Sequence record: LR597651
From: Escherichia phage Lambda_ev058
DNA length: 47,678 nucleotides
Reading direction: 5' to 3' (one strand)
Part shown: one piece after another, positions 29,104 through 47,326 of the stretch
Position numbering within the stretch: the stretch's first letter is position 1
Layout: the number at the start of each line of letters is the position of its first letter
The notes under the pieces: generated by a model
Seen by the model: only the letters and a program-made list of their open reading frames with translations
Database searches by the model: none
Told to the model about the DNA's origin: nothing
Position numbers and translations under genes: made by a program

Positions 29104-29150
29104 TTTTACACCTCAGTTGGACGATGTTGAAATTTGCTGCTTTGAGGCCA

Positions 29151-31565: not shown

Positions 31566-31570
31566 CCGTT

Positions 31571-31987
31571 TTATACCTCTGAATCAATATCAACCTGGTG
31601 GTGAGCAATGGTTTCAACCATGTACCGGATGTGTTCTGCCATGCGCTCCTGAAACTCAACATCGTCATCAAACGCACGGGTAATGGCTTTTTTGCTGGCC
31701 CCGTGGCGTTGCAAATGATCGATGCATAGCGATTCAAACAGGTGCTGGGGCAGGCCTTTTTCCATGTCGTCTGCCAGTTCTGCCTCTTTCTCTTCACGGG
31801 CGATCTGCTGGTAGTGACGCGCCCAGCTCTGAGCCTCAAGACGATCCTGAATGTAATAAGCGTTCATGGCTGAACTCCTGAAATAGCTGTGAAAATATCG
31901 CCCGCGAAATGCCGGGCTGATTAGGAAAACAGGAAAGGGGGTTAGTGAATGCTTTTGCTTGATCTCAGTTTCAGTATTAATATCCAT
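31571..31987 (-). CDS. gam: host nuclease inhibitor Gam
   Basis: 138-aa ORF matching lambda Gam as recalled ([32 protein letters not shown]...). Confidence 0.95.
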
Positions 31988-32085
31988 TTTTTATAAGCGT
32001 CGACGGCCTCACGAAACATCTTTTCATCGCCAATAAAAGTGGCGATAGTGAATTTAGTCTGGATAGCCATAAGTGTTTGATCCAT
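31942..32085 (-). CDS. kil: host killing protein Kil
   Basis: 47-aa product from the internal ATG ([28 protein letters not shown]...) matching lambda Kil as recalled; overlaps gam and cIII as in lambda. Confidence 0.8.
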
Positions 32086-32218
32086 TTTTTGGGACTCCTG
32101 GCTGATTAAGTATGTCGATAAGGCGTTTCCATCCGTCACGTAATTTACGGGTGATTCGTTCAAGTAAAGATTCGGAAGGGCAGCCAGCAACAGGCCACCC
32201 TGCAATGGCATATTGCAT
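32054..32218 (-). CDS. cIII: CIII, FtsH inhibitor that stabilises CII
   Basis: 54-aa ORF below the track cut-off; translated by hand as [54 protein letters not shown], matching lambda CIII as recalled. Confidence 0.85.
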   Translation of the reverse strand: MQYAIAGWPVAGCPSESLLERITRKLRDGWKRLIDILNQPGVPKNGSNTYGYPD

Positions 32219-32290
32219 GGTGTGCTCCTTATTTATACATAACGAAAAACGCCTCGAGTGAAGCGTTATTGGTATGCGGTAACGCCGCGC

Positions 32291-32659
32291 TCAGGCGGCT
32301 TTGATAGTCATATCATCTGAATCAAATATTCCTGATGTATCGATATCGGTAATTCTTATTCCTTCGCTACCATCCATTGGAGGCCATCCTTCCTGACCAT
32401 TTCCATCATTCCAGTCGAACTCACACACAACACCATATGCATTTAAGTCGCTTGAAATTGCTATAAGCAGAGCATGTTGCGCCAGCATGATTAATACAGC
32501 ATTTAATACAGAGCCGTGTTTATTGAGTCGGTATTCAGAGTCTGACCAGAAATTATTAATCTGGTGAAGTTTTTCCTCTGTCATTACGTCATGGTCGATT
32601 TCAATTTCTATTGATGCTTTCCAGTCGTAATCAATGATGTATTTTTTGATGTTTGACAT
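32291..32659 (-). CDS. ea10: Ea10-like early protein
   Basis: 122-aa ORF at the lambda ea10-equivalent position and length. Confidence 0.55.
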   Translation of the reverse strand: MSNIKKYIIDYDWKASIEIEIDHDVMTEEKLHQINNFWSDSEYRLNKHGSVLNAVLIMLAQHALLIAISSDLNAYGVVCEFDWNDGNGQEGWPPMDGSEGIRITDIDTSGIFDSDDMTIKAA

Positions 32660-32919
32660 CTATTCATATCCTCACAGATAAAAAATCGCCCTCACATTGG
32701 AGGGCAAAGAAGATTTCCAATAATCAGAACAAGTCGGCTCCTGTTTAGTTACGAGCGACATTGCTCAGTGTATTCACTCGTTGGAATGAATACACAGTGC
32801 AGTGTTTATTAGTATGCCTGTCTTTTAACCACATCAGGCTCGGTGGTTCTCGTGTACCCCTACAGCGAGAAATCGGATAAACTCTATTCACCCCTACAGA
32901 GAGCAAAAGAGAAACGCCG

Positions 32920-33501
32920 ATGAACAACTCATGGTGGCAGGAACTAATGCATTTTTTCCTGCAAGGAATGACACTTAAACAGTTGATTCATATGCTAATC
33001 ATCCTGATCATATTGATTATTGTTATGCCTGTAAGCGTAAAAGAATGGATAAACCTGCATAATCCAGAAATCCTTCCTCATTACTGGATGTATTACATCC
33101 TGTTGTTTTGCGTTAGCTATGTGCTTAACGGCGTTGTTAATTCCGCTTATCACGCTGTGACTGTAAGAATTGAGATATTCGCTGCTCAGAAGCGCAAATC
33201 TAAAGAAGAGAAATACGTGCAAGATTTGTTTGATTCGTTAACTCTTGGAGAAAGAGCGTATTTGGCATTCGCTGTAGCCGCTAATAACCAGCTAAAGACA
33301 GAAAAGGGAAGCCCTGAAGCAATCTCATTGCTCGAAAAAGGGCTTCTTATTCGGGTACCTTCTGCTACTGGATATCCTGAAATCGACCGTTTTGTTATCC
33401 CGGAACGCTATAGAAATGAGTGCTACATTAGGTTTGCTGGGAAGAAAGACAGTCTTATGGATGAACTTATCGCTCAGGATAAGCATGGCAAAAACAAGTA
33501 A
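32920..33501 (+). CDS. sieB: superinfection exclusion protein SieB-like membrane protein
   Basis: 193-aa ORF on the strand opposite the pL operon, with N-terminal transmembrane helices (LIHMLIILIILIIVMPV, YWMYYILLFCVSYVLNG); sequence recalled as SieB-like. Own upstream region with repeats. Confidence 0.55.
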   Translation: MNNSWWQELMHFFLQGMTLKQLIHMLIILIILIIVMPVSVKEWINLHNPEILPHYWMYYILLFCVSYVLNGVVNSAYHAVTVRIEIFAAQKRKSKEEKYVQDLFDSLTLGERAYLAFAVAANNQLKTEKGSPEAISLLEKGLLIRVPSATGYPEIDRFVIPERYRNECYIRFAGKKDSLMDELIAQDKHGKNK

Positions 33502-33517
33502 TTAGCAAATGAATTTA

Positions 33518-33829
33518 TCATCTCGCCGTCAGTTGTTTTGATTTCCGGTAGCCTGCCGCGTAAATAGCTACGTTTGGCAGGCAAACACTTCCACTGCATT
33601 CATCTACTTTCTTGCAGCGAAGGCTTCCGAGTGATATTGCTTTTTCAGAAAGGCTTAACCGCTTTCTCGGGTCTTCCTGAACAGGTTCCTCACTGTCTGT
33701 GCCGAAGATCGAATCGATGATGTTGCAGATGGAATCACGCTCGATGGCCAGCTTTCTGCGCCGCTCATGACGGCGAGTTTTGGCATTTCCTGCAAATGTT
33801 GATTTTCCGTACACGATTACCGTCATGAT
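33518..33829 (-). CDS. N: N-type transcription antiterminator (P22 gene 24-like, arginine-rich motif)
   Basis: 103-aa product from MTVIVYGKSTFAGNAKTRRHERRRKLAIERD..., with an N-terminal arginine-rich RNA-binding motif. First gene downstream of nutL. Confidence 0.75.
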   Translation of the reverse strand: MMTVIVYGKSTFAGNAKTRRHERRRKLAIERDSICNIIDSIFGTDSEEPVQEDPRKRLSLSEKAISLGSLRCKKVDECSGSVCLPNVAIYAAGYRKSKQLTAR

Positions 33830-33944
33830 GTTTTCCTCATGTGAAATGGCTTTGGTGGTGATGCGCCAGATGCTGATCTTCTGGTTGCTGTCGTTACTGC
33901 TGCAATTCACATCACCCCAAACCCATCTCGTTTGGTATCTGTTC

Positions 33945-33978
33945 GCGCTTTGTCAGCGCATCATCGAAGTTAAAGAGC
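33945..33978 (-). promoter_or_regulatory. nutL: nutL (boxA plus boxB)
   Basis: Direct, on the minus strand: boxA GCTCTTTAAC (33969-33978), then boxB hairpin GCGCTGACAAAGCGC (33945-33959), which is the P22-type boxB-left sequence as recalled. Confidence 0.75.
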
Positions 33979-34268
33979 CTGCCAATCTGTTCCGTTTGGC
34001 TGCCAGCGTCCTGCTGATGGCGATTATAATGAACCAATAGTTCGATATTATCAAGAACTATAAGTACGAATTGTTTGTGGTTCATTAACTTAATGAGATA
34101 TGTTTTTGATATGTAAAGGAATTTATTTTTGTAAAGATTGAAGATTGGTCAGTAGGAGAGAAAGAATTGTTTGCTGGCGTGTTAGTTCGTGGGTTAGCAC
34201 ATGTGCGGATGTTAAATAAGGTAGACGATCGTGAGGAAAAGAAAAACCGGCGCTGAGGCCGGGTATAA

Positions 34269-35168
34269 TTATTTGATTATTTCTTTTATAAAGACTTCTT
34301 TCGGTTGGTATTTTTTATCTGATGATTTGAGCTGGTACGTTATTGTTATATCAGCACGTACAGAAAATTTACCTGCAAAATCTGATGGGTTTACGTTGGG
34401 GCCAAGAACCATATTTACTCTTCGATCTATTAATCCAGGGATAACAGCAGCCCAACCTTTCTCTGGATTGTCGAGGTCTAATGCACGGATTTCAACATCA
34501 ACATCAAAATGATCCTGAGTATATGACTCTGGTGTGAAGACAACTTCAGTTGGGGCTTTTTTAATGGTTTCAGCGGGAATGGTCACTGTACCACCCCCTG
34601 TACCTATGACCATCGTAGATCCTTCGTCTGCCCTAGCTGGGGCAAGCGTCTTAATGGAACTTTTGGCAAGAGTCTTCTTATTGGTTACCGTGCTTTCTAT
34701 GATTGCTTGAAGACGGTCAGGTGAAATATTAGCCTCACCGGCACCAATATTGATGATTGTATTGTTATTTGCTTCAAAGTGGGAGGTGTTGCTTGGAGCC
34801 ATAGCCTTAGTTGCTAGAACTAAGCCATATCCAACCAGACCAATAACAACAGCACCAACGAGAGCGTTTCTCATTTTCCCATTTCCGATCTTTGCATGAG
34901 CGCCAGCAAGAAACTTGTCCATTTCTTCTTGGCTACCAAAGAGGAGTTTAATAACAATATCTTCATAAAGGCTTCCTGCTTCTAATCGCGCAACATGCAC
35001 CGATATATCAAGGATATTAGCCCCTGTCAGTTCCTGCAAAACACCTTCTGATTGTTTTGCGATGGCCTCCCACCCTTGAAGGGAGGTAATCACATCTTTG
35101 ATGCTTACAGGTTCTTTAGTTGAATAATATATGTTTTCGGTAAAGGTTAAAGATAATTCTTGGGACAT
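34269..35168 (-). CDS. hypothetical membrane protein in the position where lambda carries rexAB (candidate exclusion/abortive-infection gene)
   Basis: 299-aa ORF directly downstream of the repressor gene on the same strand; one strong hydrophobic helix (NALVGAVVIGLVGYGLVLATKAM); AT-rich relative to cI and N; no recognised homology. Confidence 0.6.
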   Translation of the reverse strand: MSQELSLTFTENIYYSTKEPVSIKDVITSLQGWEAIAKQSEGVLQELTGANILDISVHVARLEAGSLYEDIVIKLLFGSQEEMDKFLAGAHAKIGNGKMRNALVGAVVIGLVGYGLVLATKAMAPSNTSHFEANNNTIINIGAGEANISPDRLQAIIESTVTNKKTLAKSSIKTLAPARADEGSTMVIGTGGGTVTIPAETIKKAPTEVVFTPESYTQDHFDVDVEIRALDLDNPEKGWAAVIPGLIDRRVNMVLGPNVNPSDFAGKFSVRADITITYQLKSSDKKYQPKEVFIKEIIK

Positions 35169-35297
35169 CCGAGCCCTCGCTGTTTCTTTCGATTTGCTGT
35201 GTTAAGCTAATATTTTAATATCCATGTTTCTGTTTGCTTGCAGTGTGTTTCTCACCACCATCCAAACGTACTGGTTACTAGCTATGTGATGATGAAG

Positions 35298-36005
35298 TCA
35301 TGAACTTTTCAGCCATTCCCTGGCCTCGATGTCATCTAGGTGGCGAGATTGCTTCAGAATACCAGCTACATACTCCACCTTTGCTACTTGATGATAAGGC
35401 AACGTTATTGGCCTGTGGTCTTGGTTGATGCTTGTAAATTGGTATTCTCCGTCTCTGTCATAGCCAAGAACCTTGATCATGTTGTGCCCTTCAATGGTTC
35501 TGACAAACACCTCATCACCTGGGAATACTTTGGTGTTAGGCTCAATGAGTACATATTCTCCTGATTTTATTCTGGGCCACATGCTGTCTCCTTTTACACG
35601 AAGACCAAAGGCATCTGGATCATCGCTATAAATCTTGAGCCACCCATCGCGCTCTTCGGTCATCTCGATGGCACCATCAACACCAAGAATTGCCTCACCA
35701 ACCACGCGCACTAACCCTTTTTTTAATTTGCCAACAATTGAAAAAGTATCTTCATCATTCGCTCCATTTAACGAAGTGCCGTGCTGAAGCCAAACAACAT
35801 CAACGTTTAGAAATTTCGCAAGCGCATTCATTTTTTCCTGGCGTGGTAAAGACTCAGCATTAAACCATTTGCTAACGCCTTTGGACGAAAGAGAAAGGGC
35901 ACGGGCTATGGCCATTCCCCTACCATGTTCATCAAGACCAGCTTCTTTACAGGCTTGCGCTAGCCGCTGGGCGAATTCTTTGCGCACTTTTTCATTCTGA
36001 ACCAT
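35298..36005 (-). CDS. cI: CI-type repressor (HTH plus S24 LexA-like autopeptidase domain)
   Basis: 235-aa ORF with an N-terminal HTH (GMAIARALSLSSKGVSKWF) and a C-terminal GDSM serine motif with downstream Lys, as in lambda CI/LexA. Divergent from cro. Confidence 0.85.
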   Translation of the reverse strand: MVQNEKVRKEFAQRLAQACKEAGLDEHGRGMAIARALSLSSKGVSKWFNAESLPRQEKMNALAKFLNVDVVWLQHGTSLNGANDEDTFSIVGKLKKGLVRVVGEAILGVDGAIEMTEERDGWLKIYSDDPDAFGLRVKGDSMWPRIKSGEYVLIEPNTKVFPGDEVFVRTIEGHNMIKVLGYDRDGEYQFTSINQDHRPITLPYHQVAKVEYVAGILKQSRHLDDIEAREWLKSS

Positions 36006-36083
36006 GAGTACGATACTAAAGCACTTGCAAAAACTTTCAGTTCAACCATAATGCGTACTGAAAGTACGAAAAAGGACATTCCT
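36006..36083. promoter_or_regulatory. OR/pR-pRM divergent control region
   Basis: Direct: candidate pR -35 TTGCAA (36025-36030) and -10 CATAAT (36047-36052); inverted repeat AAACTTTCAGT / TACTGAAAGTA; repeated AGTACGA motif. Confidence 0.45.
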
Positions 36084-36311
36084 ATGCAAAATCTTGATGA
36101 GCCGATTAAAGGTGTCGGCATCCCTGAAGTTGCGAAGGCTTGTGGAGTTAGCGAAAGGGCTGTCTATAAGTGGCTCAAAAACGGCTTCCTCCCTAAGACT
36201 GAGTTTTTTGGGAAAACGAAATACGCATCAAAAATCGAAGAGATTTCTGGTGGCAAATATCAAGCAAGCGAAATGCTTGAAATAAGCAAAAAGAACCTTC
36301 TGGCAGCATAA
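36084..36311 (+). CDS. cro: Cro-type repressor
   Basis: 75-aa product from MQNLDEPIKGVGIPEVAKACGVSERAVYKWLKNG..., with an HTH; first rightward gene opposite cI. Confidence 0.75.
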   Translation: MQNLDEPIKGVGIPEVAKACGVSERAVYKWLKNGFLPKTEFFGKTKYASKIEEISGGKYQASEMLEISKKNLLAA

Positions 36312-36318
36312 GTAACAC

Positions 36319-36353
36319 CGCTCTTTATCAATCTGCACCGCCGACAACGCGGT
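36319..36353 (+). promoter_or_regulatory. nutR: nutR (boxA plus boxB)
   Basis: Direct: boxA CGCTCTTTA (36319-36327) and boxB hairpin ACCGCCGACAACGCGGT (36337-36353), the P22-type boxB-right sequence as recalled. Confidence 0.75.
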
Positions 36354-36417
36354 AACTAATTAAGAACTCATCGAAAGATGCGTATTAGTGATTATTTACC
36401 TATGGAAATAGTAAGAA

Positions 36418-36717
36418 ATGGAACAAACAAATTACAGCAAACTATCACAGCGCGACGTTGATCGCGCAGAAACAGATTTACTTATCAACCTGTCAACGCT
36501 TACTCAGCGCGGTCTGGCAAAGATGATTGGCTGTCATGAATCGAAGATAAGCAGAACAGACTGGAGGTTTATAGCTTCGGTCTTGTGTGCTTTTGGCATG
36601 GCATCAGACATCAGTCCGATTAGCAGAGCTTTTAAGTATGCGCTTGATGAAATCACCAATAAAAAACGCCCGGTGTGCAAGACCGAGCGTTCTGAACAAA
36701 TCCAGATGGAGTTCTGA
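36418..36717 (+). CDS. cII: CII-type transcriptional activator
   Basis: 99-aa ORF; C-terminal ...TNKKRPVCKTERSEQIQMEF matches the lambda CII C-terminus (..TNKKRPAATERSEQIQMEF) as recalled. Confidence 0.85.
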   Translation: MEQTNYSKLSQRDVDRAETDLLINLSTLTQRGLAKMIGCHESKISRTDWRFIASVLCAFGMASDISPISRAFKYALDEITNKKRPVCKTERSEQIQMEF

Positions 36718-36749
36718 GGTCATTACTGGATCTATCAACAGGAGTCATT

Positions 36750-37649
36750 ATGACAAATACAGCAAAAATACTCAACTTCGGCAGAGGTAACTTTGCCGGA
36801 CAGGAGCGTAATGTGGCAGATCTCGATGATGGTTACGCCAGACTATCAAATATGCTGCTTGAGGCTTATTCGGGCGCAGATCTGACCAAGCGACAGTTTA
36901 AAGTGCTGCTTGCCATTCTGCGTAAAACCTATGGGTGGAATAAACCAATGGACAGAATCACCGATTCTCAACTTAGCGAGATTACAAAGTTACCTGTCAA
37001 ACGGTGCAATGAAGCCAAGTTAGAACTCGTCAGAATGAATATTATCAAGCAGCAAGGCGGCATGTTTGGACCAAACAAAAACATCTCAGAATGGTGCATC
37101 CCTCAAAACGAGGGAAAATCCCCTAAAACGAGGGATAAAACATCCCTCAAATTGGGGGATTGCTATCCCTCAAAACAGGGGGACACAAAAGACACTATTA
37201 CAAAAGAAAAAAGAAAAGATTATTCGTCCGAGAATTCTGGCGAATCCTCTGACCAGCCAGAAAACGATCTTTCTGTGGTTAAACCGGATGCTGCAATTCA
37301 GAGCGGCAGTAAGTGGGGAACAGCAGAAGACCTGACCGCCGCAGAGTGGATGTTTGACATGGTGAAGACCATCGCGCCATCAGCCAGAAAACCGAATTTT
37401 GCTGGGTGGGCTAACGATATCCGCCTGATGCGTGAACGTGACGGACGTAACCACCGCGATATGTGTGTGCTTTTCCGCTGGGCCTGCCAGGACAACTTCT
37501 GGTCCGGTAACGTGCTGAGTCCGGCCAAACTCCGCGACAAGTGGACCCAGCTCGAAATCAACCGTAACAAGCAACAGGCTGGCGTGACAGCCGGAAAACC
37601 AAAACTCGACCTGACAAACACTGACTGGATTTACGGGGTGGATCTATGA
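36750..37649 (+). CDS. O: replication initiator O
   Basis: 299-aa ORF matching lambda O as recalled (MTNTAKILNFGRGNFAGQERNVADLDDGYARL...); contains the ori iterons. Confidence 0.95.
   Translation: MTNTAKILNFGRGNFAGQERNVADLDDGYARLSNMLLEAYSGADLTKRQFKVLLAILRKTYGWNKPMDRITDSQLSEITKLPVKRCNEAKLELVRMNIIKQQGGMFGPNKNISEWCIPQNEGKSPKTRDKTSLKLGDCYPSKQGDTKDTITKEKRKDYSSENSGESSDQPENDLSVVKPDAAIQSGSKWGTAEDLTAAEWMFDMVKTIAPSARKPNFAGWANDIRLMRERDGRNHRDMCVLFRWACQDNFWSGNVLSPAKLRDKWTQLEINRNKQQAGVTAGKPKLDLTNTDWIYGVDL
37097..37225. repeat. ori: ori-lambda: four O-binding iterons plus A/T-rich unwinding region
   Basis: Direct: four ~19-bp inverted-repeat iterons (ATCCCTCAAAACGAGGGA-type) at 37097-37185, followed by the A/T-rich tract AAAAGAAAAAAGAAAAGATTATT. 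Confidence 0.85.
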
Positions 37650-38347
37650 AAAACATCGCCGCACAGATGGTTAACTTTGACCGTGAGCAGATGCGTCGGA
37701 TCGCCAACAACATGCCGGAACAGTACGACGAAAAGCCACAGGTACAGCAGGTAGCGCAGATCATCAACGGTGTGTTCAGCCAGTTACTGGCAACTTTCCC
37801 GGCGAGCCTGGCTAACCGTGACCAGAACGAACTGAACGAAATCCGCCGCCAGTGGGTTCTGGCTTTCCGGGAAAACGGGATCACCACAATGGAACAGGTT
37901 AACGCAGGAATGCGCGTAGCCCGTCGGCAGAATCGACCATTTCTGCCATCACCCGGGCAGTTTGTTGCATGGTGCCGGGAAGAAGCATCCGTTATCGCCG
38001 GACTGCCAAACGTCAGCGAGCTGGTTGATATGGTTTACGAGTATTGCCGGAAGCGAGGCCTGTATCCGGATGCGGAGTCTTATCCGTGGAAATCAAATGC
38101 GCACTACTGGCTGGTTACCAACCTGTATCAGAACATGCGGGCCAATGCGCTTACTGATGCGGAATTACGCCGTAAGGCCGCAGATGAGCTTGTCCATATG
38201 ACTGCGAGAATTAACCGTGGTGAGGCGATCCCTGAACCAGTAAAACAACTTCCTGTCATGGGCGGTAGACCTCTAAATCGTGCACAGGCTCTGGCGAAGA
38301 TCGCAGAAATCAAAGCTAAGTTCGGACTGAAAGGAGCAAGTGTATGA
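37646..38347 (+). CDS. P: replication protein P (DnaB helicase loader)
   Basis: 233-aa ORF matching lambda P as recalled (MKNIAAQMVNFDREQMRRIANNMPEQYDEKPQ...). Confidence 0.95.
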   Translation: MKNIAAQMVNFDREQMRRIANNMPEQYDEKPQVQQVAQIINGVFSQLLATFPASLANRDQNELNEIRRQWVLAFRENGITTMEQVNAGMRVARRQNRPFLPSPGQFVAWCREEASVIAGLPNVSELVDMVYEYCRKRGLYPDAESYPWKSNAHYWLVTNLYQNMRANALTDAELRRKAADELVHMTARINRGEAIPEPVKQLPVMGGRPLNRAQALAKIAEIKAKFGLKGASV

Positions 38348-38634
38348 CGGGCAAAGAGGCAATTATTCATTACCTGGGGACGCATAATAGCTTCTGTGCG
38401 CCGGACGTTGCCGCGCTAACAGGCGCAACAGTAACCAGCATAAATCAGGCCGCGGCTAAAATGGCACGGGCAGGTCTTCTGGTTATCGAAGGTAAGGTCT
38501 GGCGAACGGTGTATTACCGGTTTGCTACCAGGGAAGAACGGGAAGGAAAGATGAGCACGAACCTGATTTTCAAGGAGTGTCGCCAGAGTGCCGCGATGAA
38601 ACGGGTATTGGCGGTATATGGAGTTAAAAGATGA
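38344..38634 (+). CDS. ren: Ren
   Basis: 96-aa ORF matching lambda Ren as recalled (MTGKEAIIHYLGTHNSFCAPDVAALTG...). Confidence 0.9.
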   Translation: MTGKEAIIHYLGTHNSFCAPDVAALTGATVTSINQAAAKMARAGLLVIEGKVWRTVYYRFATREEREGKMSTNLIFKECRQSAAMKRVLAVYGVKR

Positions 38635-38659
38635 CCATCTACATTACTGAGCTAATAAC

Positions 38660-38690
38660 AGGCCTGCTGGTAATCGCAGGCCTTTTTATT
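38660..38690 (+). terminator. tR2-like intrinsic terminator
   Basis: Direct: AGGCCTGC-loop-GCAGGCCT stem followed by TTTTTATT, just after ren. Confidence 0.55.
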
Positions 38691-39401
38691 GTGCACAGAA
38701 AACCCCCAGCTAGGCTGGGGGTTCCGGAAAGCTTTCAGCTTTGAGCCAGTTATTAAAACCCCTTTTGATTTGTTAAAACACCTTGCGGTCTGGCAACTGC
38801 AAGTGTCAAACAAGAAATCAAAAGGGGGTCCCAATGGGGAACGAAAAGAGCTTAGCGCACACCCGATGGAACTGTAAATATCACATAGTTTTTGCGCCAA
38901 AATACCGAAGACAGGTGTTCTACAGAGAGAAGCGTAGAGCAATAGGCAGTATTTTGAGAAAGCTGTGTGAGTGGAAAAGCGTACGGATTCTGGAAGCTGA
39001 ATGCTGTGCAGATCATATCCATATGCTTGTGGAGATCCCGCCTAAAATGAGCGTATCCGGGTTTATGGGATATCTGAAAGGGAAAAGCAGTCTGATGCTT
39101 TACGAGCAGTTTGGTGATTTGAAATTCAAATACAGGAACAGGGAGTTCTGGTGCAGAGGGTACTACGTCGATACAGTGGGTAAGAACACGGCGAAGATAC
39201 AGGATTACATAAAGCACCAGCTTGAAGAGGATAAAATGGGAGAGCAGTTATCGATTCCCTATCCGGGCAGCCCGTTTACGGGCCGTAAGTAACGAAGTTG
39301 GATGCAAATGTCAGATCGTGTGCGCCTGTTAGGGCGCGGCTGGTAAGAGAGCCTTATAGGCGCATTTGAAAAACCTCCGGCTATGCCGGAGGATATTTAT
39401 T
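38691..39401 (+). mobile_element. IS200 insertion sequence (IS200/IS605 family)
   Basis: About 711 bp inserted in the ren-ninB spacer. Left-end stem-loop CCCCCAGC-TAG-GCTGGGGG (38702-38720), tnpA, and right-end hairpin CCTCCGG-CTATG-CCGGAGG (39374-39392). Boundaries inferred by comparison with the recalled lambda spacer; accurate to about 5 bp. Confidence 0.75.
38834..39292 (+). CDS. tnpA: IS200 transposase TnpA (Y1 HUH)
   Basis: 152-aa product from MGNEKSLAHTRWNCKYHIVFAPKYRRQ..., with the HxH motif (ADHIHML) and catalytic Tyr region; closely matches IS200 TnpA as recalled. Confidence 0.9.
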   Translation: MGNEKSLAHTRWNCKYHIVFAPKYRRQVFYREKRRAIGSILRKLCEWKSVRILEAECCADHIHMLVEIPPKMSVSGFMGYLKGKSSLMLYEQFGDLKFKYRNREFWCRGYYVDTVGKNTAKIQDYIKHQLEEDKMGEQLSIPYPGSPFTGRK

Positions 39402-39418
39402 TGGGGGAGAGGGAAGTC

Positions 39419-39859
39419 ATGAAAAAACTAACCTTTGAAATTCGATCTCCAGCACATCAGCAAAACGCTATTCACGCAGTACAGCAAATCCTTCCAGACC
39501 CAACCAAACCAATCGTAGTAACCATTCAGGAACGCAACCGCAGCTTAGACCAAAACAGGAAGCTATGGGCCTGCTTAGGTGACGTCTCTCGTCAGGTTGA
39601 ATGGCATGGTCGCTGGCTGGATGCAGAAAGCTGGAAGTGTGTGTTTACCGCAGCATTAAAGCAGCAGGATGTTGTTCCTAACCTTGCCGGGAATGGCTTT
39701 GTGGTAATAGGCCAGTCAACCAGCAGGATGCGTGTAGGCGAATTTGCGGAGCTATTAGAGCTTATACAGGCATTCGGTACAGAGCGTGGCGTTAAGTGGT
39801 CAGACGAAGCGAGACTGGCTCTGGAGTGGAAAGCGAGATGGGGAGATCGGGCTGCATGA
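39419..39859 (+). CDS. ninB: NinB recombination protein
   Basis: 146-aa product from MKKLTFEIRSPAHQQNAIHAVQQILPDPTKP..., matching lambda NinB as recalled. Confidence 0.9.
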   Translation: MKKLTFEIRSPAHQQNAIHAVQQILPDPTKPIVVTIQERNRSLDQNRKLWACLGDVSRQVEWHGRWLDAESWKCVFTAALKQQDVVPNLAGNGFVVIGQSTSRMRVGEFAELLELIQAFGTERGVKWSDEARLALEWKARWGDRAA

Positions 39860-40383
39860 CTATCAAATCAAATACGCCAGCACACGACAAGGACTGCTGG
39901 CAAACGCCGCTTTGGCTTTTTGATGCACTGGATATTGAGTTTGGATTCTGGCTGGATTCGGCAGCGAGCGACAAAAATGCTCTGTGTGCTCACTGGCTAA
40001 CTGAGGCCGACGACGCGCTCAATTCTGAGTGGGTAAGCCACGGTGCAATCTGGAATAACCCACCGTACAGCAATATCAGGCCGTGGGTGGAAAAAGCCGC
40101 TGAGCAGTGCATACAACAGCGACAGACGGTAGTTATGCTTGTGCCAGAGGATATGTCAGTCGGATGGTTCAGCAAGGCTCTGGAGAGTGTCGACGAAGTT
40201 CGCATTATCACTGATGGACGGATTAATTTTATCGAACCATCGACAGGGCTGGAGAAGAAGGGAAACAGCAAAGGCTCCATGCTGCTGATTTGGCGACCGT
40301 TCATCAGTCCTCGACGGATGTTTACTACCGTATCCAAAGCGGCATTGATGGCGATCGGGCAGGGCGTCAGGAGGGCGGCATGA
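39856..40383 (+). CDS. phage DNA N6-adenine methyltransferase (Dam-like, orphan)
   Basis: 175-aa product from [26 protein letters not shown]..., with the catalytic NPPY motif (WNNPPYS); start overlaps the ninB stop. Occupies the position of lambda ninC. Confidence 0.8.
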
Positions 40384-40556
40384 GGCGACAGCGACGAAGT
40401 TTCACCGACATCATCTGCGAAAACTGCAAATACCTTCCAACGAAACGCTCCAGAAATAAACGCAAGCCAATCCCAAAAGAATCTGACGTAAAAACCTTCA
40501 ATTACACAGCTCACCTGTGGGATATCCGGTGGCTAAGATATCGTGCGAGGAAATGA
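40380..40556 (+). CDS. ninE: NinE
   Basis: 58-aa product [52 protein letters not shown]..., matching lambda NinE as recalled. Confidence 0.85.
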
Positions 40557-40900
40557 CAATGGATTATTCACAGTTAAGTGATTTTGAAATTAACAGAATG
40601 GTAGGAGACATAATTTTTAAAGGCCTTTGGGCAAGTAAACCGGAAACATCAGGGAATAACACCAACAAATGGTATTACGGAAATGCTGATACAACTTTTG
40701 AGCCATTAAATCATTTGCCTGACTACTGCAATGATCCGAGCGCTTCATGGCCGATTATTGAGAAATACAGGATTTCTATCTTAGACCAGTTAACTGAATG
40801 GTGTGTGGATGCAAAAGGCGTAAGCCCAATATTTGATACCAGACCTCTCCGCGCCGCCATTATTGTCTTTCTCCTGATGCAGGAGGCCAATAATGCTTAG
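40553..40900 (+). CDS. hypothetical protein (nin region)
   Basis: 115-aa product from [19 protein letters not shown]...; AT-rich; no recognised homology. Confidence 0.5.
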
Positions 40901-41087
40901 CCCATCTCAATCCCTTCAATACCTGAAAGGAAGCATAGAGCGGGCTTCAATGTGCACAGAGTGGATTCTATCTAGGTTTAGCGCATACAGAAGATTGCCG
41001 GTAAAGGGCATGCCAAGCAAGTCGATGCTGCATATGCAAAAGAATGCGCGCGGGAAGGTATGGCGAGAACGCAGGTTATCTGGCTGA
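40893..41087 (+). CDS. ninF: NinF-like protein with divergent C-terminus
   Basis: 64-aa ORF; the first 10 residues [10 protein letters not shown] match the lambda NinF N-terminus as recalled, but the remainder lacks the Cys motifs. Confidence 0.4.
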
Positions 41088-41106
41088 AAGAGGGGGTAAT
41101 TAAGGC

Positions 41107-41469
41107 GTGAATACTTACCACATCACACTACCCTGGCCTCCGAGCAATAATCGCTATTATCGCCATAATCGCGGGCGCACGCACGTCAGCGCAGAGGGGC
41201 AGGCATACCGCGATAACGTCGCCCGAATCATTAAAAACGCAATGCTGGATATCGGCCTGGCGATGCCTGTGAAAATCCGCATTGAGTGCCACATGCCGGA
41301 TCGCCGTCGCCGTGACCTGGATAATCTGCAAAAAGCCGCTTTTGACGCACTCACCAAAGCAGGTTTCTGGCTGGATGATGCTCAGGTCGTTGATTACCGC
41401 GTTGTGAAGATGCCTGTTACCAAAGGTGGGAGGCTGGAATTGACCATCACCGAAATGGGGAATGAATGA
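41107..41469 (+). CDS. rusA: Holliday junction resolvase RusA
   Basis: 120-aa ORF matching E. coli DLP12 RusA as recalled ([34 protein letters not shown]...). Confidence 0.95.
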
Positions 41470-41606
41470 TGTTTGAGTTTTATATGGCAGAACGTCTTCG
41501 CCACCGCTGGGTGCGTCTGCGCTTATATCGTTTCCCCGGTTCTGTTTTGACCGATTACCGAATACTGAAGAATTACGCCAAAACACTGACAGGAGCAGGA
41601 GTATGA
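41466..41606 (+). CDS. ylcG: YlcG-like small protein
   Basis: 46-aa ORF below the track cut-off, translated by hand as [46 protein letters not shown]; overlaps the rusA stop; matches DLP12 YlcG as recalled. Confidence 0.7.
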
Positions 41607-41691
41607 AGTCAGAGATAACAATCAACTAATACTGTTTTGCTGATTTTTGCTTGTAATTGGCGTTCTGGTCTGATTTTTGTGGAGTAAGTTG

Positions 41692-42069
41692 ATGCGTGAT
41701 ATTCAGATGGTTCTTGAGCGTTGGGGAGCGTGGGCGGCTAATAATCATGAAGATGTGACCTGGTCGTCCATTGCCGCCGGTTTTAAGGGATTAATTCCTT
41801 CAAAAGTAAAATCTCGCCCGCAATGTTGTGACGATGACGCGATGATCATTTGCGGGTGCATGGCCCGTCTGAAAAATAACAACAGCGATTTGCATGATTT
41901 GTTAGTGGACTATTATGTCGGCGGCATGACTTTTATGGCGCTTGCGCGTAAGCATGGTAGATCTGATTGTTGGATTGGCAGGATGCTCCAAAAAGCTGAG
42001 GGCGTAGTGGAGGGCATGCTGATGGTGTTGGATCTCAGATTGGAGATGGATGCTGATTGTTTGAGATAA
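41692..42069 (+). CDS. Q: late gene antiterminator Q (phage 82 / DLP12 QuuD type)
   Basis: 125-aa product from [33 protein letters not shown]..., matching the Q82-type antiterminator as recalled. Confidence 0.9.
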
Positions 42070-42168
42070 TTAAAGGAAAAGTTGCTGTCTGGTTATCATT
42101 AGACTAATGTTTCAAATGTTAGAATCGCAACGTAGTTATGATCATATAACAGCTTGTTCCCTGATTTA

Positions 42169-42198
42169 GCCAGCCTCCCCAAAGGCTGGTTTTTTTTC
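42169..42198 (+). terminator. tR'-like intrinsic terminator downstream of pR' (Q target)
   Basis: Direct: GCCAGCCT-CCCCAAA-AGGCTGG stem followed by an 8-T run, about 100 bp downstream of Q. Confidence 0.6.
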
Positions 42199-42225
42199 TA
42201 ATAAGTATCAATCCGGTTAGGTATT

Positions 42226-42750
42226 TTATTGTTTGACCCATAATAGTTCATTGACATTGAATCCCAATTTTTGAGCAGTACGCACATAGTCTGCTTTTAC
42301 ATTATCTGGAATAGTTGGAGTCCGTGCCAGAATCCATAGGTATTCTCTGTTCGGACCACTGACAAGAGCATACTTATACTCATCATCCAGTTTGATTACA
42401 TTATAGCCACCATAGAAGGGGCCAAAAAACGAAACCTTCAACGCTGCAGTTGTATTATCTCCTGTAAAGTATGCTTTACCTTCGCTCTCGCTCCATTTGT
42501 TTTTCGTTGGGTCATATCCACGATTAAGTACACTAATCCCTCCGTCGTTCCGTTTCCCATAAGTGGCGCTGACCTGTTCCAGACCACGTTCAAATCGGTT
42601 CTCAAGCCGAGCTATTTCATACCATTTTCCGAGGTAGCGGTTGGTGTCAAAATTTGTAATCGGCTGCACACCTTTAGGTGGTGTCGGGGCCTTACATGCT
42701 ATCAGAGTGAAAGAGAGTGCAATGCCAGTCAACACAGGCCATAACTTCAT
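42226..42750 (-). CDS. blc: outer-membrane lipocalin lipoprotein (Blc-like)
   Basis: 174-aa ORF with lipobox LIAC after a signal peptide; lipocalin motifs (RYLGKWYEIAR, KVSFFGPFYGGYNVI, EYLWILARTPT) matching E. coli Blc as recalled. Confidence 0.85.
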   Translation of the reverse strand: MKLWPVLTGIALSFTLIACKAPTPPKGVQPITNFDTNRYLGKWYEIARLENRFERGLEQVSATYGKRNDGGISVLNRGYDPTKNKWSESEGKAYFTGDNTTAALKVSFFGPFYGGYNVIKLDDEYKYALVSGPNREYLWILARTPTIPDNVKADYVRTAQKLGFNVNELLWVKQ

Positions 42751-42942
42751 AATATATCCTGTACTTTTGATAGTTGAGAGTAAGTATTAAAGATAGATGA
42801 TTACTACCGATCACCTAAAGAACTTTCCTACTATATTAGGAATAGTCCATAACAAAAAAATTGTCAGTGATGACGGCAGAAAGGCAGTTTAGGTCGTGTA
42901 CTACACTGTTAACCTGTTAATGAATTAGTCAAGGGGTAGGCA

Positions 42943-43902
42943 ATGATAAAAAAACCTGTCGTTGGGATCAGTGGTTGTTTGGCCGGTTCTTCTGTCCGTT
43001 TTGATGGTGGTCACAAAAGAGCTAGCTTTTTAATGGACAAATTACTGGAATGGGTAACATTCAAACCAGTATGTCCGGAAATGGCTATAGGGCTTCCAGT
43101 TCCGCGTCCTGCTCTACGTCTTGTTCGCTCGGCGCAAGGAAATATACGGATGTGTTTCAGCCACGACCAGAATGAGGATGTTACAGAGAAAATGACAGAG
43201 TTTAGTCGTTCTTATCTTGACAAATTAAAGGATGTATCGGGATTTGTGGTTTGTGCAAAATCTCCTAGCTGTGGTATGGAACGCGTGCGTGTATATGATG
43301 AAAATGGTAATCGTGGTCGTAAAGATGGAGTGGGACTATTTACGAGCACGTTGATGGAAAGGTTTTCCTGGCTACCGGTTGAAGAGGATGGGCGACTACA
43401 TGATCCAGTGCTTCGTGAAAACTTTGTTGAAAGAGTATTTGCTTTACATGAGCTCAATCATCTTTATAAAGCGAAATTATCAAGAAGGGAATTATTAGCT
43501 TTTCATAGCCGTTATAAGCTTCAGTTGTTGGCGCATAGCCAGGCCGGTTATAAAGAGATGGGGCCATTTGTGGCTGCAATACATGAGTGGGCAGACCTTG
43601 AATCATACTTTGAGGTGTATCGTGAGAAGCTGATGGCGATTCTCAGAAAACCTGCATCACGTAAAAATCACACGAATGTGCTGATGCATATACAGGGATA
43701 TTTTAGTAACTGCTTAAATACACGTCAGCGTAAAGAGTTGAGCGATGTTATACTTAACTATCGAGCTGGCACGCTACCTCTTCTTGCGCCATTAACTTTG
43801 CTGAAGCATTACTTGGCAGAGTATCCTGATGATTATTTGCTTATACAGAATTACTTCCACCCCTATCCTGATGAACTGGCTCTAAGACTCTTGGTGAACT
43901 AG
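42943..43902 (+). CDS. DUF523-DUF1722 protein (YbgA/TudS-like; putative Fe-S thiouracil or 4-thiouridine desulfidase)
   Basis: 319-aa ORF with conserved Cys at roughly 12, 44 and 105-110 (GISGCLAG, KPVCPE, VCAKSPSCG) in the N-terminal half and a YbgA-like C-terminal half. Family assignment is from memory. Confidence 0.55.
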   Translation: MIKKPVVGISGCLAGSSVRFDGGHKRASFLMDKLLEWVTFKPVCPEMAIGLPVPRPALRLVRSAQGNIRMCFSHDQNEDVTEKMTEFSRSYLDKLKDVSGFVVCAKSPSCGMERVRVYDENGNRGRKDGVGLFTSTLMERFSWLPVEEDGRLHDPVLRENFVERVFALHELNHLYKAKLSRRELLAFHSRYKLQLLAHSQAGYKEMGPFVAAIHEWADLESYFEVYREKLMAILRKPASRKNHTNVLMHIQGYFSNCLNTRQRKELSDVILNYRAGTLPLLAPLTLLKHYLAEYPDDYLLIQNYFHPYPDELALRLLVN

Positions 43903-44211
43903 GCGTTTGGAATGCACCAACAAGATGATTTTCTCCTTAGAGAATGTTTACAATCGTAAAAACTTCACTATGATATCTATAGTTGTACAGTTTGTAAAAA
44001 AATTCGGTTCATGCTTAAGGTAATGTTAATATGTTAATTAATGATTAATAATCAAGCAAGCCAAAAATAGTTCTGTTTAATCTAGTATTACATAAATATT
44101 TTAAAGAAAATATCAAAGTTCATGATGATATAATGAGATTTTTCTCATTGAAAATATGGCAATTTTAATATTTCCACCTATACTTACTTAACTCAAATCT
44201 AATTATGTCAG

Positions 44212-44952
44212 GTGGATGGTATGCCATGCATATGTTCTATCATTTTGGTTTTGAACTCGTTTGATATCCGGCTTGGTAAAGAAAAAATCTCTCTAAAAAA
44301 AGGAAGTGTTGTTGCTATAGAATACAATTTAAAAGTTTTCTTTTCTTCAAATAAAGATAATATAATGATCGTGGATATTGAAGAGAAAACAGTTAATGAC
44401 TTCTTTAAAAACAATACACTCTCACCTTTTTCTGTAAGAAGATTTTATTCAGCATACTTGATAGTAAACTGTACAGACTATTCATTGTTAAAGAACTTGA
44501 TAGGTTGCTTGAATTGTGATGGTGAAACTACGGCTGTAGTTAAAAATTCAATATTATTTGCATGTCTTGCTATTTTATCCTCGGAAAAAATGTTTCAGAG
44601 TTTTTTGTTTGGGTGTCTTAATAGTTTAGGAAGCAAAGTTAAGGCTATTATTCACTCGGACATATCTGCAGCATGGAGACTTTGTGATATTTCTTCAAGA
44701 CTATGTCTGAGTGAAAGTTTGTTAAAAAGAAAACTAAAACACGAAGGCTTATCATTTAGCAAATTAATTCTTGAAGAACGAATGGTGATGGCTGAAAGGT
44801 TATTAAGCTACAATTTCTATCCTGTTGGGAAAGTTGCTAAAATATGTGGTTATGAAAGCGCGTCATATTTTATAAGTGTTTTCAGAAGATATTTTGGTGT
44901 TCCCCCCCATGAATATTCATCAAGATTTTTTTTAGAAAAAGGCAAGATGTAA
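44212..44952 (+). CDS. AraC/XylS-family transcriptional regulator (AT-rich; Rns/PerA/PatE-like)
   Basis: 246-aa ORF with a C-terminal double-HTH AraC signature (KVAKICGYESASYFISVFRRYFGVPPHEY); strongly AT-rich gene and upstream region. Start codon uncertain. Confidence 0.75.
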   Translation: MDGMPCICSIILVLNSFDIRLGKEKISLKKGSVVAIEYNLKVFFSSNKDNIMIVDIEEKTVNDFFKNNTLSPFSVRRFYSAYLIVNCTDYSLLKNLIGCLNCDGETTAVVKNSILFACLAILSSEKMFQSFLFGCLNSLGSKVKAIIHSDISAAWRLCDISSRLCLSESLLKRKLKHEGLSFSKLILEERMVMAERLLSYNFYPVGKVAKICGYESASYFISVFRRYFGVPPHEYSSRFFLEKGKM

Positions 44953-45013
44953 CGTGATGCGTTTTGATGATTTTGTAATTTTCATATTTGATGATTATAT
45001 GATGCTTTCAGCT

Positions 45014-45044
45014 ACGCCAGAATAATCGCTGGCGTTTTTCTTTT
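45014..45044 (+). terminator. intrinsic terminator after the AraC-family gene
   Basis: Direct: CGCCAG-AATAAT-CGCTGGCG stem followed by TTTTTCTTTT. Confidence 0.55.
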
Positions 45045-45119
45045 CTAATGTAACTTCTGTATCTTTCCCTCTTTCATTCCAAACCGTGTACACCATCCGT
45101 TATTCGCGGAGGTGAGGCT

Positions 45120-45335
45120 ATGAAATCCATGGACAAGTTAACAACGGGCATTGCCTACGGCACCTCTGCAGGCAGTGCTGGCTACTGGTTTTTACAGTGG
45201 CTTGATCAGGTCAGTCCGTCACAGTGGGCGGCGATTGGAGTGCTTGGAAGCCTTGTGTTGGGTTTTCTCACTTATCTGACAAACCTTTATTTCAAGATTA
45301 AAGAAGATAAGCGTAAGGCTGCGAGAGGTGAATAA
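45120..45335 (+). CDS. S: holin, phage-21-type pinholin (class II, dual start)
   Basis: 71-aa [53 protein letters not shown]... with the M1-K2-S3-M4 dual-start motif and two TMDs; matches S21 as recalled. Confidence 0.9.
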
Positions 45336-45832
45336 TGTCGCCATCATTACGCAAGGCTGTAGCAGCTGCTATTGGTGGTGGGGCTGTTGCCATAGCGTCT
45401 GTGCTCATCACTGGTCCGAGTGGTGACGATGGTCTGGAAGGTGTCAGCTACATACCATATAAAGATATTGTTGGTGTATGGACTGTATGTCACGGGCATA
45501 CAGGAAAAGACATCATGCTCGGTAAAACGTATACCAAAGCAGAATGCAAAGCACTCTTGAATAAAGACCTTGCCACTGTCGCCAGACAAATTAACCCGTA
45601 CATCAAAGTCGATATACCGGAAACAACGCGCGGCGCTCTTTACTCATTCGTTTACAACGTGGGTGCTGGCAATTTCAGAACATCGACGCTTCTTCGCAAA
45701 ATAAACCAGGGCGATATCAAAGGCGCATGTGATCAGTTACGTCGCTGGACATATGCTGGCGGTAAGCAATGGAAAGGTCTCATGACTCGTCGTGAGATTG
45801 AGCGTGAAATCTGTTTGTGGGGTCAGCAATGA
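45335..45832 (+). CDS. R: SAR endolysin (phage-21-type lysozyme)
   Basis: 165-aa ORF with an N-terminal signal-anchor-release segment ([20 protein letters not shown]) and T4-lysozyme-like E..D..T catalytic spacing; matches R21 as recalled. Confidence 0.9.
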
Positions 45833-46290
45833 ACAGAGTAACCGCGATTATCTCCGCTCTGGTTATCTGCATCATCGTCTGCCTGTCATGGGCTGTTAAT
45901 CATTACCGTGATAACGCCATTACCTACAAAGCCCAGCGCGACAAAAATGCCAGAGAACTGAAGCTGGCGAACGCGGCAATTACTGACATGCAGATGCGTC
46001 AGCGTGATGTTGCTGCGCTCGATGCAAAATACACGAAGGAGTTAGCTGATGCGAAAGCTGAAAATGATGCTCTGCGTGATGATGTTGCCGCTGGTCGTCG
46101 TCGGTTGCACATCAAAGCAGTCTGTCAGTCAGTGCGTGAAGCCACCACCGCCTCCGGCGTGGATAATGCAGCCTCCCCCCGACTGGCAGACACCGCTGAA
46201 CGGGATTATTTCACCCTCAGAGAGAGGCTGATCACGATGCAAAAACAACTGGAAGGAACCCAGAAGTATATTAATGAGCAGTGCAGATAG
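45829..46290 (+). CDS. Rz: spanin inner-membrane subunit Rz
   Basis: 153-aa product from [29 protein letters not shown]..., matching lambda Rz as recalled; start overlaps the R stop. Confidence 0.9.
46049..46231 (+). CDS. Rz1: spanin outer-membrane lipoprotein Rz1 (embedded in Rz, +1 frame)
   Basis: 60-aa ORF entirely within Rz, with lipobox VVGC and a proline-rich segment ([15 protein letters not shown]). Confidence 0.85.
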
Positions 46291-46321
46291 AGCTGCCCAT
46301 ATCGATGGGCAACTCATGCAA

Positions 46322-46615
46322 TTATTGTGAGCAATAGACACGCGCTTCCAGCGGAGTATAAATGCCTAAAGTAATAAAACCGAGCAATCCATTTACGAAT
46401 GTTTGCTGGGTTTCTGTTTTAACAACATTTTCTGCGCCGCCACAAATTTTGGCTGCATCAACAGTTTTCTCCTGTCCAATTCCCGAAACGAAGAAGTGAT
46501 GGGTGATGGTTTCCTTTGGTGTTACTGCTGTCGGTTTGTTTCCAACAGTAAACGTCTGTTGAGCACATCCTGTAATAAGCATTGCCAGAGCGGCAGAAAA
46601 CAACATTTTTTTCAT
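46322..46615 (-). CDS. bor: Bor lipoprotein (serum resistance)
   Basis: 97-aa product from MKKMLFSAALAMLITGCAQQTFTV..., with lipobox ITGC; matches lambda Bor as recalled. The track ORF begins 16 codons upstream. Confidence 0.9.
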   Translation of the reverse strand: MKKMLFSAALAMLITGCAQQTFTVGNKPTAVTPKETITHHFFVSGIGQEKTVDAAKICGGAENVVKTETQQTFVNGLLGFITLGIYTPLEARVYCSQ

Positions 46616-47169: not shown

Positions 47170-47326
47170 GAGGTTGCCCCGTATTCAGTGTCGCTGATTT
47201 GTATTGTCTGAAGTTGTTTTTACGTTAAGTTGATGCAGATCAATTAATACGATACCTGCGTCATAATTGATTATTTGACGTGGTTTGATGGCGTAGATGC
47301 ACGTTGTGACATGTAGATGATAATTA

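Follow-up and report, generated by a model that had tools for sequence, protein, structure and literature searches.

The genome of Escherichia phage Lambda_ev058 (record LR597651; one strand of 47,678 nucleotides, the whole of which is referred to below as the window) carries a complete copy of the insertion sequence (IS) IS200 at the 3' end of the phage terminator tR2, in the spacer between ren and ninB. Taken together, our data are best explained, and we hold this with considerable confidence, by an intact IS200 that transposed recently into the phage, took its normal kind of target, an intrinsic terminator, and is mostly a passenger there. In this scenario, an element of the IS200C type would have moved from an E. 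coli host chromosome into a lambda-like phage and joined the 3' end of the tR2 T-run, on the strand that reads hairpin and then T-run. The element is a known one in a new and rare location, and its position is explained by a general, apparently under-described target rule. IS200 almost never transposes in the laboratory and is usually dormant. Lambda_ev058 and its relative Lambda_ev110, however, form a near-isogenic pair in which about 21 kb differ only by the IS, and this pair documents a recent hop.

Structure and identity of the inserted element

The IS200 occupies positions 38691 to 39401 on the + strand (711 bp), is complete and of the IS200C type, and its ends were fixed by comparison with the empty sites of phage lambda and Lambda_ev110. 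Lambda reads GGCCTTTTTATT^TGGGGGAGAGGG at the empty site, and the window has 711 extra bases at the caret (GTGCACAGAAAACCCCC...GGAGGATATTTATT); read over a longer stretch, a three-way alignment gives GCAGGCCTTTTTATT^TGGGGGAGAGGGAAGTCATG for lambda, with GTGCACAGAAAACCCCCAGC...CCGGAGGATATTTATT at the caret in the window. The flanks of the element equal phage lambda at 100% and were matched in two pieces, one on the ren side and one on the ninB side. A preliminary description of this DNA had placed an IS200 of about 711 bp, with a Y1 transposase and terminal hairpins, at this interval and directly downstream of the tR2 hairpin in the ren-ninB spacer; the interval proved correct to the base, and the lambda alignment bears out the location. 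Between 38300 and 39800, the order is the end of P, ren, a hairpin with its T-run, the 711-bp block, and ninB, with the following features.

38344 to 38634, + strand: ren, from the open reading frame (ORF) list, the lambda alignment and the annotation of related records; 56 nucleotides separate its stop codon from the insertion point downstream.
38660 to 38690, + strand: intrinsic terminator tR2, hairpin AGGCCTGC-TGGTAATC-GCAGGCCT (38660 to 38683) and T-run TTTTATT (38684 to 38690).
38701 to 38723, + strand: left-end subterminal hairpin of IS200, AACCCCCAGC-TAG-GCTGGGGGTT, found by folding and as the first helix of the Rfam STnc490 model.
38759 to 38827, + strand: stem-loop of the left end (fold of 38691 to 38835, z = -5.8; Rfam STnc490), with the antisense RNA art200 encoded opposite.
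38834 to 39292, + strand: tnpA, encoding an intact 152-residue Y1 (HUH) transposase (Pfam Y1_Tnp, PF01797, 3.8e-38, residues 11 to 129).
39374 to 39401, + strand: right end of IS200, hairpin CCTCCGGC-TAT-GCCGGAGG (39374 to 39392) and tail ATATTTATT (39393 to 39401); fold z = -3.1.
39419 to 39859, + strand: ninB (Pfam NinB, 2e-54), with an intact ribosome-binding site, GGGGGAGAGGG, 17 nucleotides downstream of the element.

From the first base of the hairpin to the end of TTTTTATT, the tR2 terminator equals that of lambda; it is flagged as terminator-like and abuts the left end of IS200. The tR2 hairpin survives the insertion with eight of its nine T-run bases, as does the ninB ribosome-binding site. 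There is no target-site duplication: excision of the 711 bp restores the empty site TTTTTATT^TGGGGG of lambda and Lambda_ev110. Nor are there terminal inverted repeats: GTGCACAG at one end and ATATTTATT at the other show no such relationship. TTTATT is found both at the target and at the right end, so the 711-bp unit can be slid up to 6 nucleotides to the left with no change in sequence. The right-end TTTATT is present in all IS200 copies whatever the site, and more than 100 independent insertion sites, when compared, support GTGCACAG...ATATTTATT as the mobile unit. The published IS200 is 707 bp long with a terminator hairpin at nucleotides 12 to 34 (PMC4513863), a numbering which suggests that the conventional left end is set 1 nucleotide further to the left than ours.

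When TnpA was aligned to the solved Y1 transposases 2ec2, 2f4f and 2a6m (IS608 TnpA), the HUH motif (DHIHM) and the tyrosine (DYIKHQ) were found to be kept, with DHIH(M/L) and the Y of (D/K)YI retained across the alignment. The gene is the sole family-matched ORF of the element, the other mechanically called ORFs overlapping it, and there is no tnpB because a 711-bp element is too short to hold one. Aligned with IS200 copies, as the preliminary description had proposed for defining the ends, the element is complete and differs at one of 711 positions (element position 353, a synonymous change) from a chromosomal copy in the yiaY-aldB spacer of E. coli EBJ003, whose protein, WP_000526135.1, is identical to the TnpA of the window. 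Of 5,426 complete E. coli genomes, 1,951 hold near-identical elements annotated as IS200C, thousands in all, with 98 to 99.5% identity and up to 35 places in a single genome; a Salmonella IS200 copy shares 91.7% identity with the element. At the sequence level, the Y1 ORF, its motifs, the hairpins, the lack of a duplication, the RNA structures, the identity and the target all place the element within IS200. Judged by its sequence, it appears functional and autonomous, and transposition as single-stranded DNA would be expected from the intact ORF and ends together with the near-identical relatives that lack the IS.

As a separate observation, the closest chromosomal IS200C copy (NZ_CP086334.1, yiaY-aldB spacer) stands directly after the yiaY terminator, with ATGGCTGGCTAATTGTCAGCCATTTTTTT joined to GTGCACAG. 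The same 737-bp yiaY-aldB match recurs in dozens of human isolates, many of them ST131-like genomes.

The left end folds into three hairpins at element positions 11 to 33, 38 to 52 and 69 to 137. The published IS200 has its Shine-Dalgarno-sequestering stem-loop at nucleotides 69 to 138 (PMC4513863), and the folded positions agree with the published ones to within 1 nucleotide. The IS200 left-end RNA STnc490 (Rfam RF01405) matches 38701 to 38824 over the whole model (positions 1 to 124) with 146.4 bits against a gathering score of 56. Directly 5' of the left-end hairpin lies a conserved GAAAA, a putative guide, and the hairpin itself is the predicted transposase-binding hairpin of the family. 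Folded together as DNA, tR2 and the left-end stretch give z = -4.2. At the right end, an 8-bp stem with seven G-C pairs is followed by ATATTTATTT, and a terminator scan flags it on both strands. The tail ATATTTATT is kept at every full right end of the E. coli-, Salmonella- and Yersinia-type copies surveyed; two Vibrio-type copies end in ATACTTTTTT or ATATTTTTTTT, keeping a T-rich tail and, through compensatory stem changes, the hairpin.

Three other Rfam matches were set aside. Ysr202 at 39369 to 39471 (- strand) scored 36 bits against a gathering score of 315 and shares only the right-end hairpin; the model of this Yersinia small RNA (sRNA) probably includes an IS1541 end. Trp_leader over tR2 (E = 0.73) and CRISPR-DR57 (E = 0.75) are chance or generic-terminator matches.

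The structural properties of the element are shared with IS200 and IS200C of Salmonella and E. coli and with IS1541 of Yersinia, which have the same single 152-residue Y1 HUH transposase, no tnpB, a length of about 710 bp, no inverted repeats or target duplication, and the same left-end terminator hairpin, Shine-Dalgarno stem-loop and art200/STnc490 RNAs. Compared with chromosomal IS200C, to which it is 99.9% identical, the element is no different, and only its location, in a packaged lambdoid phage genome, is unusual.

Intrinsic terminators as the target of IS200

To place the tR2 insertion among others of its kind, we surveyed IS200 left ends, identified by the exact left-end hairpin pattern, in 62 viral contigs and 120 further stretches (one genome per species). 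These covered prophages of E. coli and Salmonella as well as Yersinia (IS1541), Vibrio, Serratia, Phytobacter, Kosakonia, Citrobacter and distant metagenome-assembled genomes. Each junction was tested for a strict G+C-rich hairpin with a T-tail, with sampled random positions and positions after TTT[AT]TT as controls. Such a hairpin and T-tail precede 101 of 112 distinct left junctions (90%), compared with 0.7% of the random positions and 12% of the positions after TTT[AT]TT, and on inspection by eye the 11 listed failures of the strict test also have hairpins, imperfect or long ones. Immediately before the left end, the 112 distinct sites share the consensus TTT(T/A)TT, with T at position -5 in 112 of 112; the window has TTTATT. 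A same-strand ORF of at least 80 codons ends within 150 nucleotides upstream at 79 of 105 junctions (75%; median distance 55 nucleotides, 56 in the window), as against 26% in the random control. The tail between the foot of the hairpin and the junction peaks at 6 to 7 nucleotides, compared with 9 for the IS200 right end; the two lengths are roughly similar and were not used as evidence.

The adjacency of the element to tR2 is its normal target choice and not a coincidence. The rule also fixes orientation, with tnpA pointing in the same direction as the terminated gene: IS200 lands on the strand that reads hairpin and then T-run, and tnpA therefore runs in the same direction as ren and ninB. 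The window holds about eight sites with a hairpin and a T-run, counting both strands, among them tR2, one at 42197 just downstream of Q, and one at 36658 to 36661 on the - strand; by their positions, we take the latter two to be the putative late-operon and oop terminators, respectively.

The tR2 terminator appears to have been used more than once. PhiR63_2, deposited as a complete phage genome with ECOR13 as its listed host, carries IS200 at the same tR2 nucleotide and in the same orientation as the window, and so does a truncated, defective prophage in the pig isolate HCP4S3_I4. In the metagenome contig OGYY01003055, the nucleotide, orientation and hairpin are again the same, and the upstream gene is different. 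The viral contig L052 (IMGVR_UViG_2880350357_000005) has a Salmonella-type IS200, with 57 differences from the copy in the window, on the opposite strand of a tR2-type hairpin; it follows ...CAGCAGGCCTGTTATT on the minus strand and sits between codon 8 of a small ORF in the ren-ninB spacer and the hairpin. Copies at the same tR2 site differ from each other at 7 to 11 positions, and, with distinct IS sequences and with differing flanks in PhiR63_2 and HCP4S3_I4, they look like independent insertions. The arrangement is nevertheless scarce, being found in only 1 of 5,426 complete E. coli genomes.

In HCP4S3_I4 (NZ_CM149872.1, 1332674 to 1339435), the lambdoid prophage, with O, P, ren, tR2 and IS200, ends exactly at the IS200 right end, where it is joined to the chromosomal gene ybdG, and an IS3-family element lies at its other side. 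This arrangement suggests an IS200-associated deletion or rearrangement.

How might a terminator come to be chosen? In this transposon family, TnpA binds the subterminal hairpins on one strand and moves the element as single-stranded DNA, a short guide immediately 5' of the foot of each hairpin reads the cleavage sites by base interactions, and the left end is joined to the 3' side of a short, specific target, with a preference for the lagging-strand template (PMC5027513). In IS200, GAAAA precedes the left-end hairpin and GAAAAA the right-end hairpin; GAAAA(A) is conserved across lineages, as is GAAAAC, in contrast to the first 8 nucleotides of the element, which vary. The right end terminates in TTTATT, which is the target consensus. 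We propose that the A-rich guide (GAAAA) 5' of the left-end hairpin would pair with the T-rich cleavage site TTT(T/A)TT, and that a terminator hairpin with its T-tail would copy the right end (hairpin and ATATTTATT), such that TnpA could cut the terminator as a pseudo right end and join the left end to it. The target strand in the window, +, is the non-template strand of pR transcription. It is also the lagging-strand template for a rightward fork from ori-lambda, an origin presumably located within O, about 1.5 kb leftward.

A more general form of this proposal, in which TnpA of the IS200 group recognizes intrinsic terminators as right-end mimics, so that targeting would be structure-directed and terminator-specific and phage terminators such as tR2 would be hot spots, is a possibility that we put forward tentatively and would not yet favor over its negation. 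Several points weigh against it. The rule rests on insertions that have survived in genomes, to which selection against intragenic insertions must contribute, and the T-run control was drawn from all DNA rather than from intergenic DNA alone. Binding or cutting of a terminator hairpin by TnpA would be a step deduced from sequence likeness, and in the IS608 model the target is recognized only through the guide and not through a hairpin (PMC5027513).

These points lead to an alternative in which survivorship is the whole explanation: IS200 would insert at any short T-rich sequence and persist where it is harmless, with no part for the hairpin in recognition. T-rich target ends do fit a simple A-rich guide model, all of the data come from fixed genomic copies, 12% of TTT[AT]TT sites already lie behind hairpins, and the IS608 model works without a hairpin at the target (PMC5027513). 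Against this stand the large excess of 90% over 12% and the position of the insertion point at the very end of the T-run rather than scattered over AT-rich intergenic DNA. Sequence-distinct IS copies, moreover, occupy the same tR2 nucleotide, one of them in a different phage background; the L052 copy was inserted on the opposite strand after a hairpin and TGTTATT, and a tandem copy in the viral contig L049 adjoins a right-end hairpin. We therefore regard survivorship alone as unlikely.

The L049 arrangement (IMGVR_UViG_2814123192_000002, about 6163 to 6893) consists of two Yersinia-type IS200 copies as a direct tandem, with the ATATTTATT of the first running straight into the left end of the second. 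It fits either a right end acting as insertion target or a retained right-end/left-end junction.

IS608 and ISDra2 share with IS200 the transposase fold, the catalytic motifs, the subterminal hairpins, insertion 3' of a short target, the guides and the lagging-strand preference. Their targets, TTAC and TTGAT, respectively, have no known need of a hairpin, whereas IS200 targets TTT(T/A)TT almost always behind a G+C-rich hairpin; unlike the other two, IS200 lacks tnpB and has a target that closely resembles its own right end. Group IIC introns insert just downstream of terminator stem-loops or attC hairpins and recognize the DNA hairpin plus a few bases (PMC7923331). The likeness to them is in target logic only, since they use a ribozyme and a reverse transcriptase and retrohome through RNA; a Rfam scan of 38000 to 40000 found no group II intron parts, and the only family-matched ORF in the element is the Y1 transposase. 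If terminator mimicry is true, it would make IS200 a DNA-transposon counterpart of group IIC introns.

In the literature searched, we found no explicit statement that IS200 targets terminators, although older key papers or ISfinder/TnPedia may describe it. A 2026 survey reported that terminator-like sequences are enriched upstream of IS elements, most of all for IS200/IS605, and read this as limiting transposase expression (PMC13548323). The target rule explains the harmlessness and poor expression of IS200 copies, as well as some sRNA 3' ends that lie just upstream of them. Combined with the A-rich guide and right-end mimicry, it provides a testable model of target choice that predicts landing sites in phages and chromosomes.

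Age and origin of the insertion

Lambda_ev110, filed under Jouyvirus, lacks IS200 and has zero differences from the window over 25258 to 38690 and 39396 to 47326. The insertion is recent because the element is the sole difference from Lambda_ev110 over both flanks, that is, for 13.4 kb to the left and 7.9 kb to the right. All 82 differences between the two phages lie at 4652 to 25257, mostly in tail genes at 12.8 to 16.0 kb. When the element and the last 350 bases are left aside, 30000 to 47678 shows a rounded 100.0% identity to the natural lambda-like phages Lambda_ev110, 2E9, 1H12 and others, all without IS200; ten such IS-less records match at least 80% of this region in one place at that rounded identity, and none spans the element. 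Near-identical phages lacking the IS are thus already public for comparison with and without the insertion. As to the donor, the IS200 of the window is 1 to 2 nucleotides from chromosomal copies and 7 to 10 nucleotides from the other copies resident at tR2. Full IS200 copies occur in just 2 of 50,697 deposited phage records, and one of the two is really a Salmonella contig. A packaged phage carrying IS200 provides a route for the element between strains.

Of the 82 differences from Lambda_ev110, 77 fall at 12825 to 16006, between the end of the tape-measure gene and the beginning of a J-like gene, and the rest of the two genomes is almost identical. This clustering therefore indicates a recombination patch in the tail genes.

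Two considerations count against a recent transposition. The family excises precisely, and the relatives without the IS may in principle have lost it by excision instead of showing the ancestral state; in addition, the record is an Illumina assembly of imperfect quality with adapter at its right end, yet both junctions are exact and the arrangement is found in independent records. The first consideration belongs to an alternative in which the insertion was imported by homologous recombination from a prophage with IS200 at tR2, or in which an ancestral element was lost from the relatives by precise excision, a process known for the family (PMC5027513). IS200 at tR2 does exist in other lambdoid prophages, and lambdoid phages recombine readily, the tail region being itself a recombinant patch relative to Lambda_ev110. 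This alternative is, however, very unlikely in our judgment. It has to contend with flanks that are identical to the IS-less Lambda_ev110 for 13.4 kb and 7.9 kb, with 400-bp flanks that differ in the IS-bearing relatives (at 8 and 2 positions in PhiR63_2 and at 23 on the left in HCP4S3_I4), and with an IS closer to chromosomal copies than to those at tR2. Many near-identical phages lack the IS compared with one that bears it, which marks the insertion as the derived state.

The second consideration raises the question of whether the assembly joined phage reads to IS200 reads from the host. The Illumina adapter left at the right end of the contig does point to incomplete cleaning, but at both junctions the phage sequence breaks at one and the same nucleotide of the empty site, with no base lost or gained, and independent records show the same arrangement. 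We consider such a chimera extremely improbable, and a recent transposition from a chromosomal copy is the reading retained below.

Effect on phage transcription and neighboring features

Lambda tR2 terminates pR transcription unless N is present, and N-modified polymerase reads through intrinsic terminators, tR2 included. The preliminary description had suggested that the left-end stem-loop of IS200 adds another terminator-like structure downstream of tR2. The hairpin is indeed there, but on the + strand it is followed by UUCCGG with no U-run, and the terminator scan is silent on it; the strongest terminator added to this strand is instead the right end, which had gone unmentioned. No sigma-70-like promoter was found in a scan of 38200 to 39700, and an outward IS promoter serving ninB was dropped as a candidate because this interval holds no promoter-like site. 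The antitermination features of the phage are the following.

33518 to 33826, - strand: N antiterminator gene (Pfam N_peptide, PF25694, 4.9e-41), with arginine-rich motif GNAKTRRHERRRKLAIER.
33945 to 33959, - strand: nutL boxB, GCGCTGACAAAGCGC, an exact match to the query.
36319 to 36353, + strand: putative nutR between cro and cII, upstream of the IS, with boxA CGCTCTTTA (36319 to 36327) and a boxB-like hairpin with a GACAA loop (36337 to 36353).
41692 to 42069, + strand: Q late-gene antiterminator (Pfam Phage_antitermQ, 2.2e-51), downstream of the nin region.

We take the arginine-rich motif GNAKTRRHERRRKLAIER to be of the P22 type and the nutL boxB GCGCTGACAAAGCGC to be identical to the P22 boxB; a search for GCCCTNNNNNAGGGC, the boxB pattern of the lambda type, found none. 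The nutR site is presumed from its resemblance to known nut sites.

Two more hairpins would now be part of the pR transcript, and polymerase modified by N should pass them. Little effect is expected in an N+ phage because N, the nut sites and Q are present and N-modified polymerase ignores such terminators. Since tR2 already makes the region N dependent, the insertion therefore adds little new dependence. The further attenuation of transcription into the nin region and Q that the preliminary description had raised is plausible and probably minor. For this phage, the outcome is a known IS in a noncoding spacer, probably with little effect when the phage is N proficient. That PhiR63_2 carries the same insertion and was deposited as a complete phage genome argues that the insertion is tolerated. 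IS200 thus appears to be mostly a passenger, and the additional 711 bp would leave the genome within lambda-type packaging limits.

The opposite view, in which the insertion matters functionally because the added terminators substantially cut pR read-through into the nin region and Q and thereby delay or weaken late expression, draws on several of the same facts. One published report, citing Beuzon 1999, describes the left-end IS200 hairpin as a bidirectional terminator against impinging transcription, and it describes IS200 insertions as polar (PMC4513863), the right end scores as a + strand intrinsic terminator, and both hairpins stand between tR2 and ninB. The N gene and the nut sites upstream, together with the ability of N-modified polymerase to bypass intrinsic terminators including tR2, nevertheless speak against substantial attenuation. 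So do the apparently complete genome of Lambda_ev058, whose DNA may be of virion or virome origin and would then imply viability, and the same insertion in PhiR63_2 of listed host ECOR13. We consider substantial attenuation rather unlikely, and a small effect remains our preferred reading.

The classical insertions in the cII-O or P-Q regions of lambda, those of IS1 and IS2 among them, involve DDE-transposase elements and are laboratory-selected mutations. They likewise place an insertion sequence in the pR operon, and N antitermination is expected to suppress their polarity. The present insertion, unlike them, involves a Y1 single-strand element that sits at a terminator in a natural phage and disrupts no annotated gene.

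A small ORF bridges the spacer into which IS200 inserted. In lambda (40567 to 40647), it has 26 codons, MTIYITELITGLLVIAGLFIWGRGKS, overlaps both ren and ninB through ATGA stop/start overlaps at its two ends, and contains the tR2 hairpin. In the window (38631 to 38744, + strand), the last 6 codons are cut off by the IS and the frame runs on into the left end for a total of 37 codons; PhiR63_2 has this longer ORF annotated as a hypothetical protein. The start of the bridging ORF is also found in L052, where the gene before it is a different one and the two again overlap through ATGA. Another stretch, L189, has the hairpin without the ORF start.

Two groups of cargo genes are recognizable by the annotation of Lambda_ev110: sitABCD, a manganese/iron ATP-binding cassette transporter in the b region (about 21700 to 25200, - strand), and a Blc lipocalin with a YbgA-like gene between Q and the lysis genes (about 42200 to 43900). 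Finally, positions 47328 to 47678, at the right end of the window, are not phage DNA and are an assembly artifact with Illumina Nextera and P7 adapter sequence (CTGTCTCTTATACACATCTCCGAGCCCACGAGAC-TAAGGCGA-ATCTCGTATGCCGTCTTCTGCTTG). The adapter sequence forms a 75-bp inverted repeat flanking about 200 bp of unrelated sequence, and a similar remnant is present at the end of Lambda_ev110.

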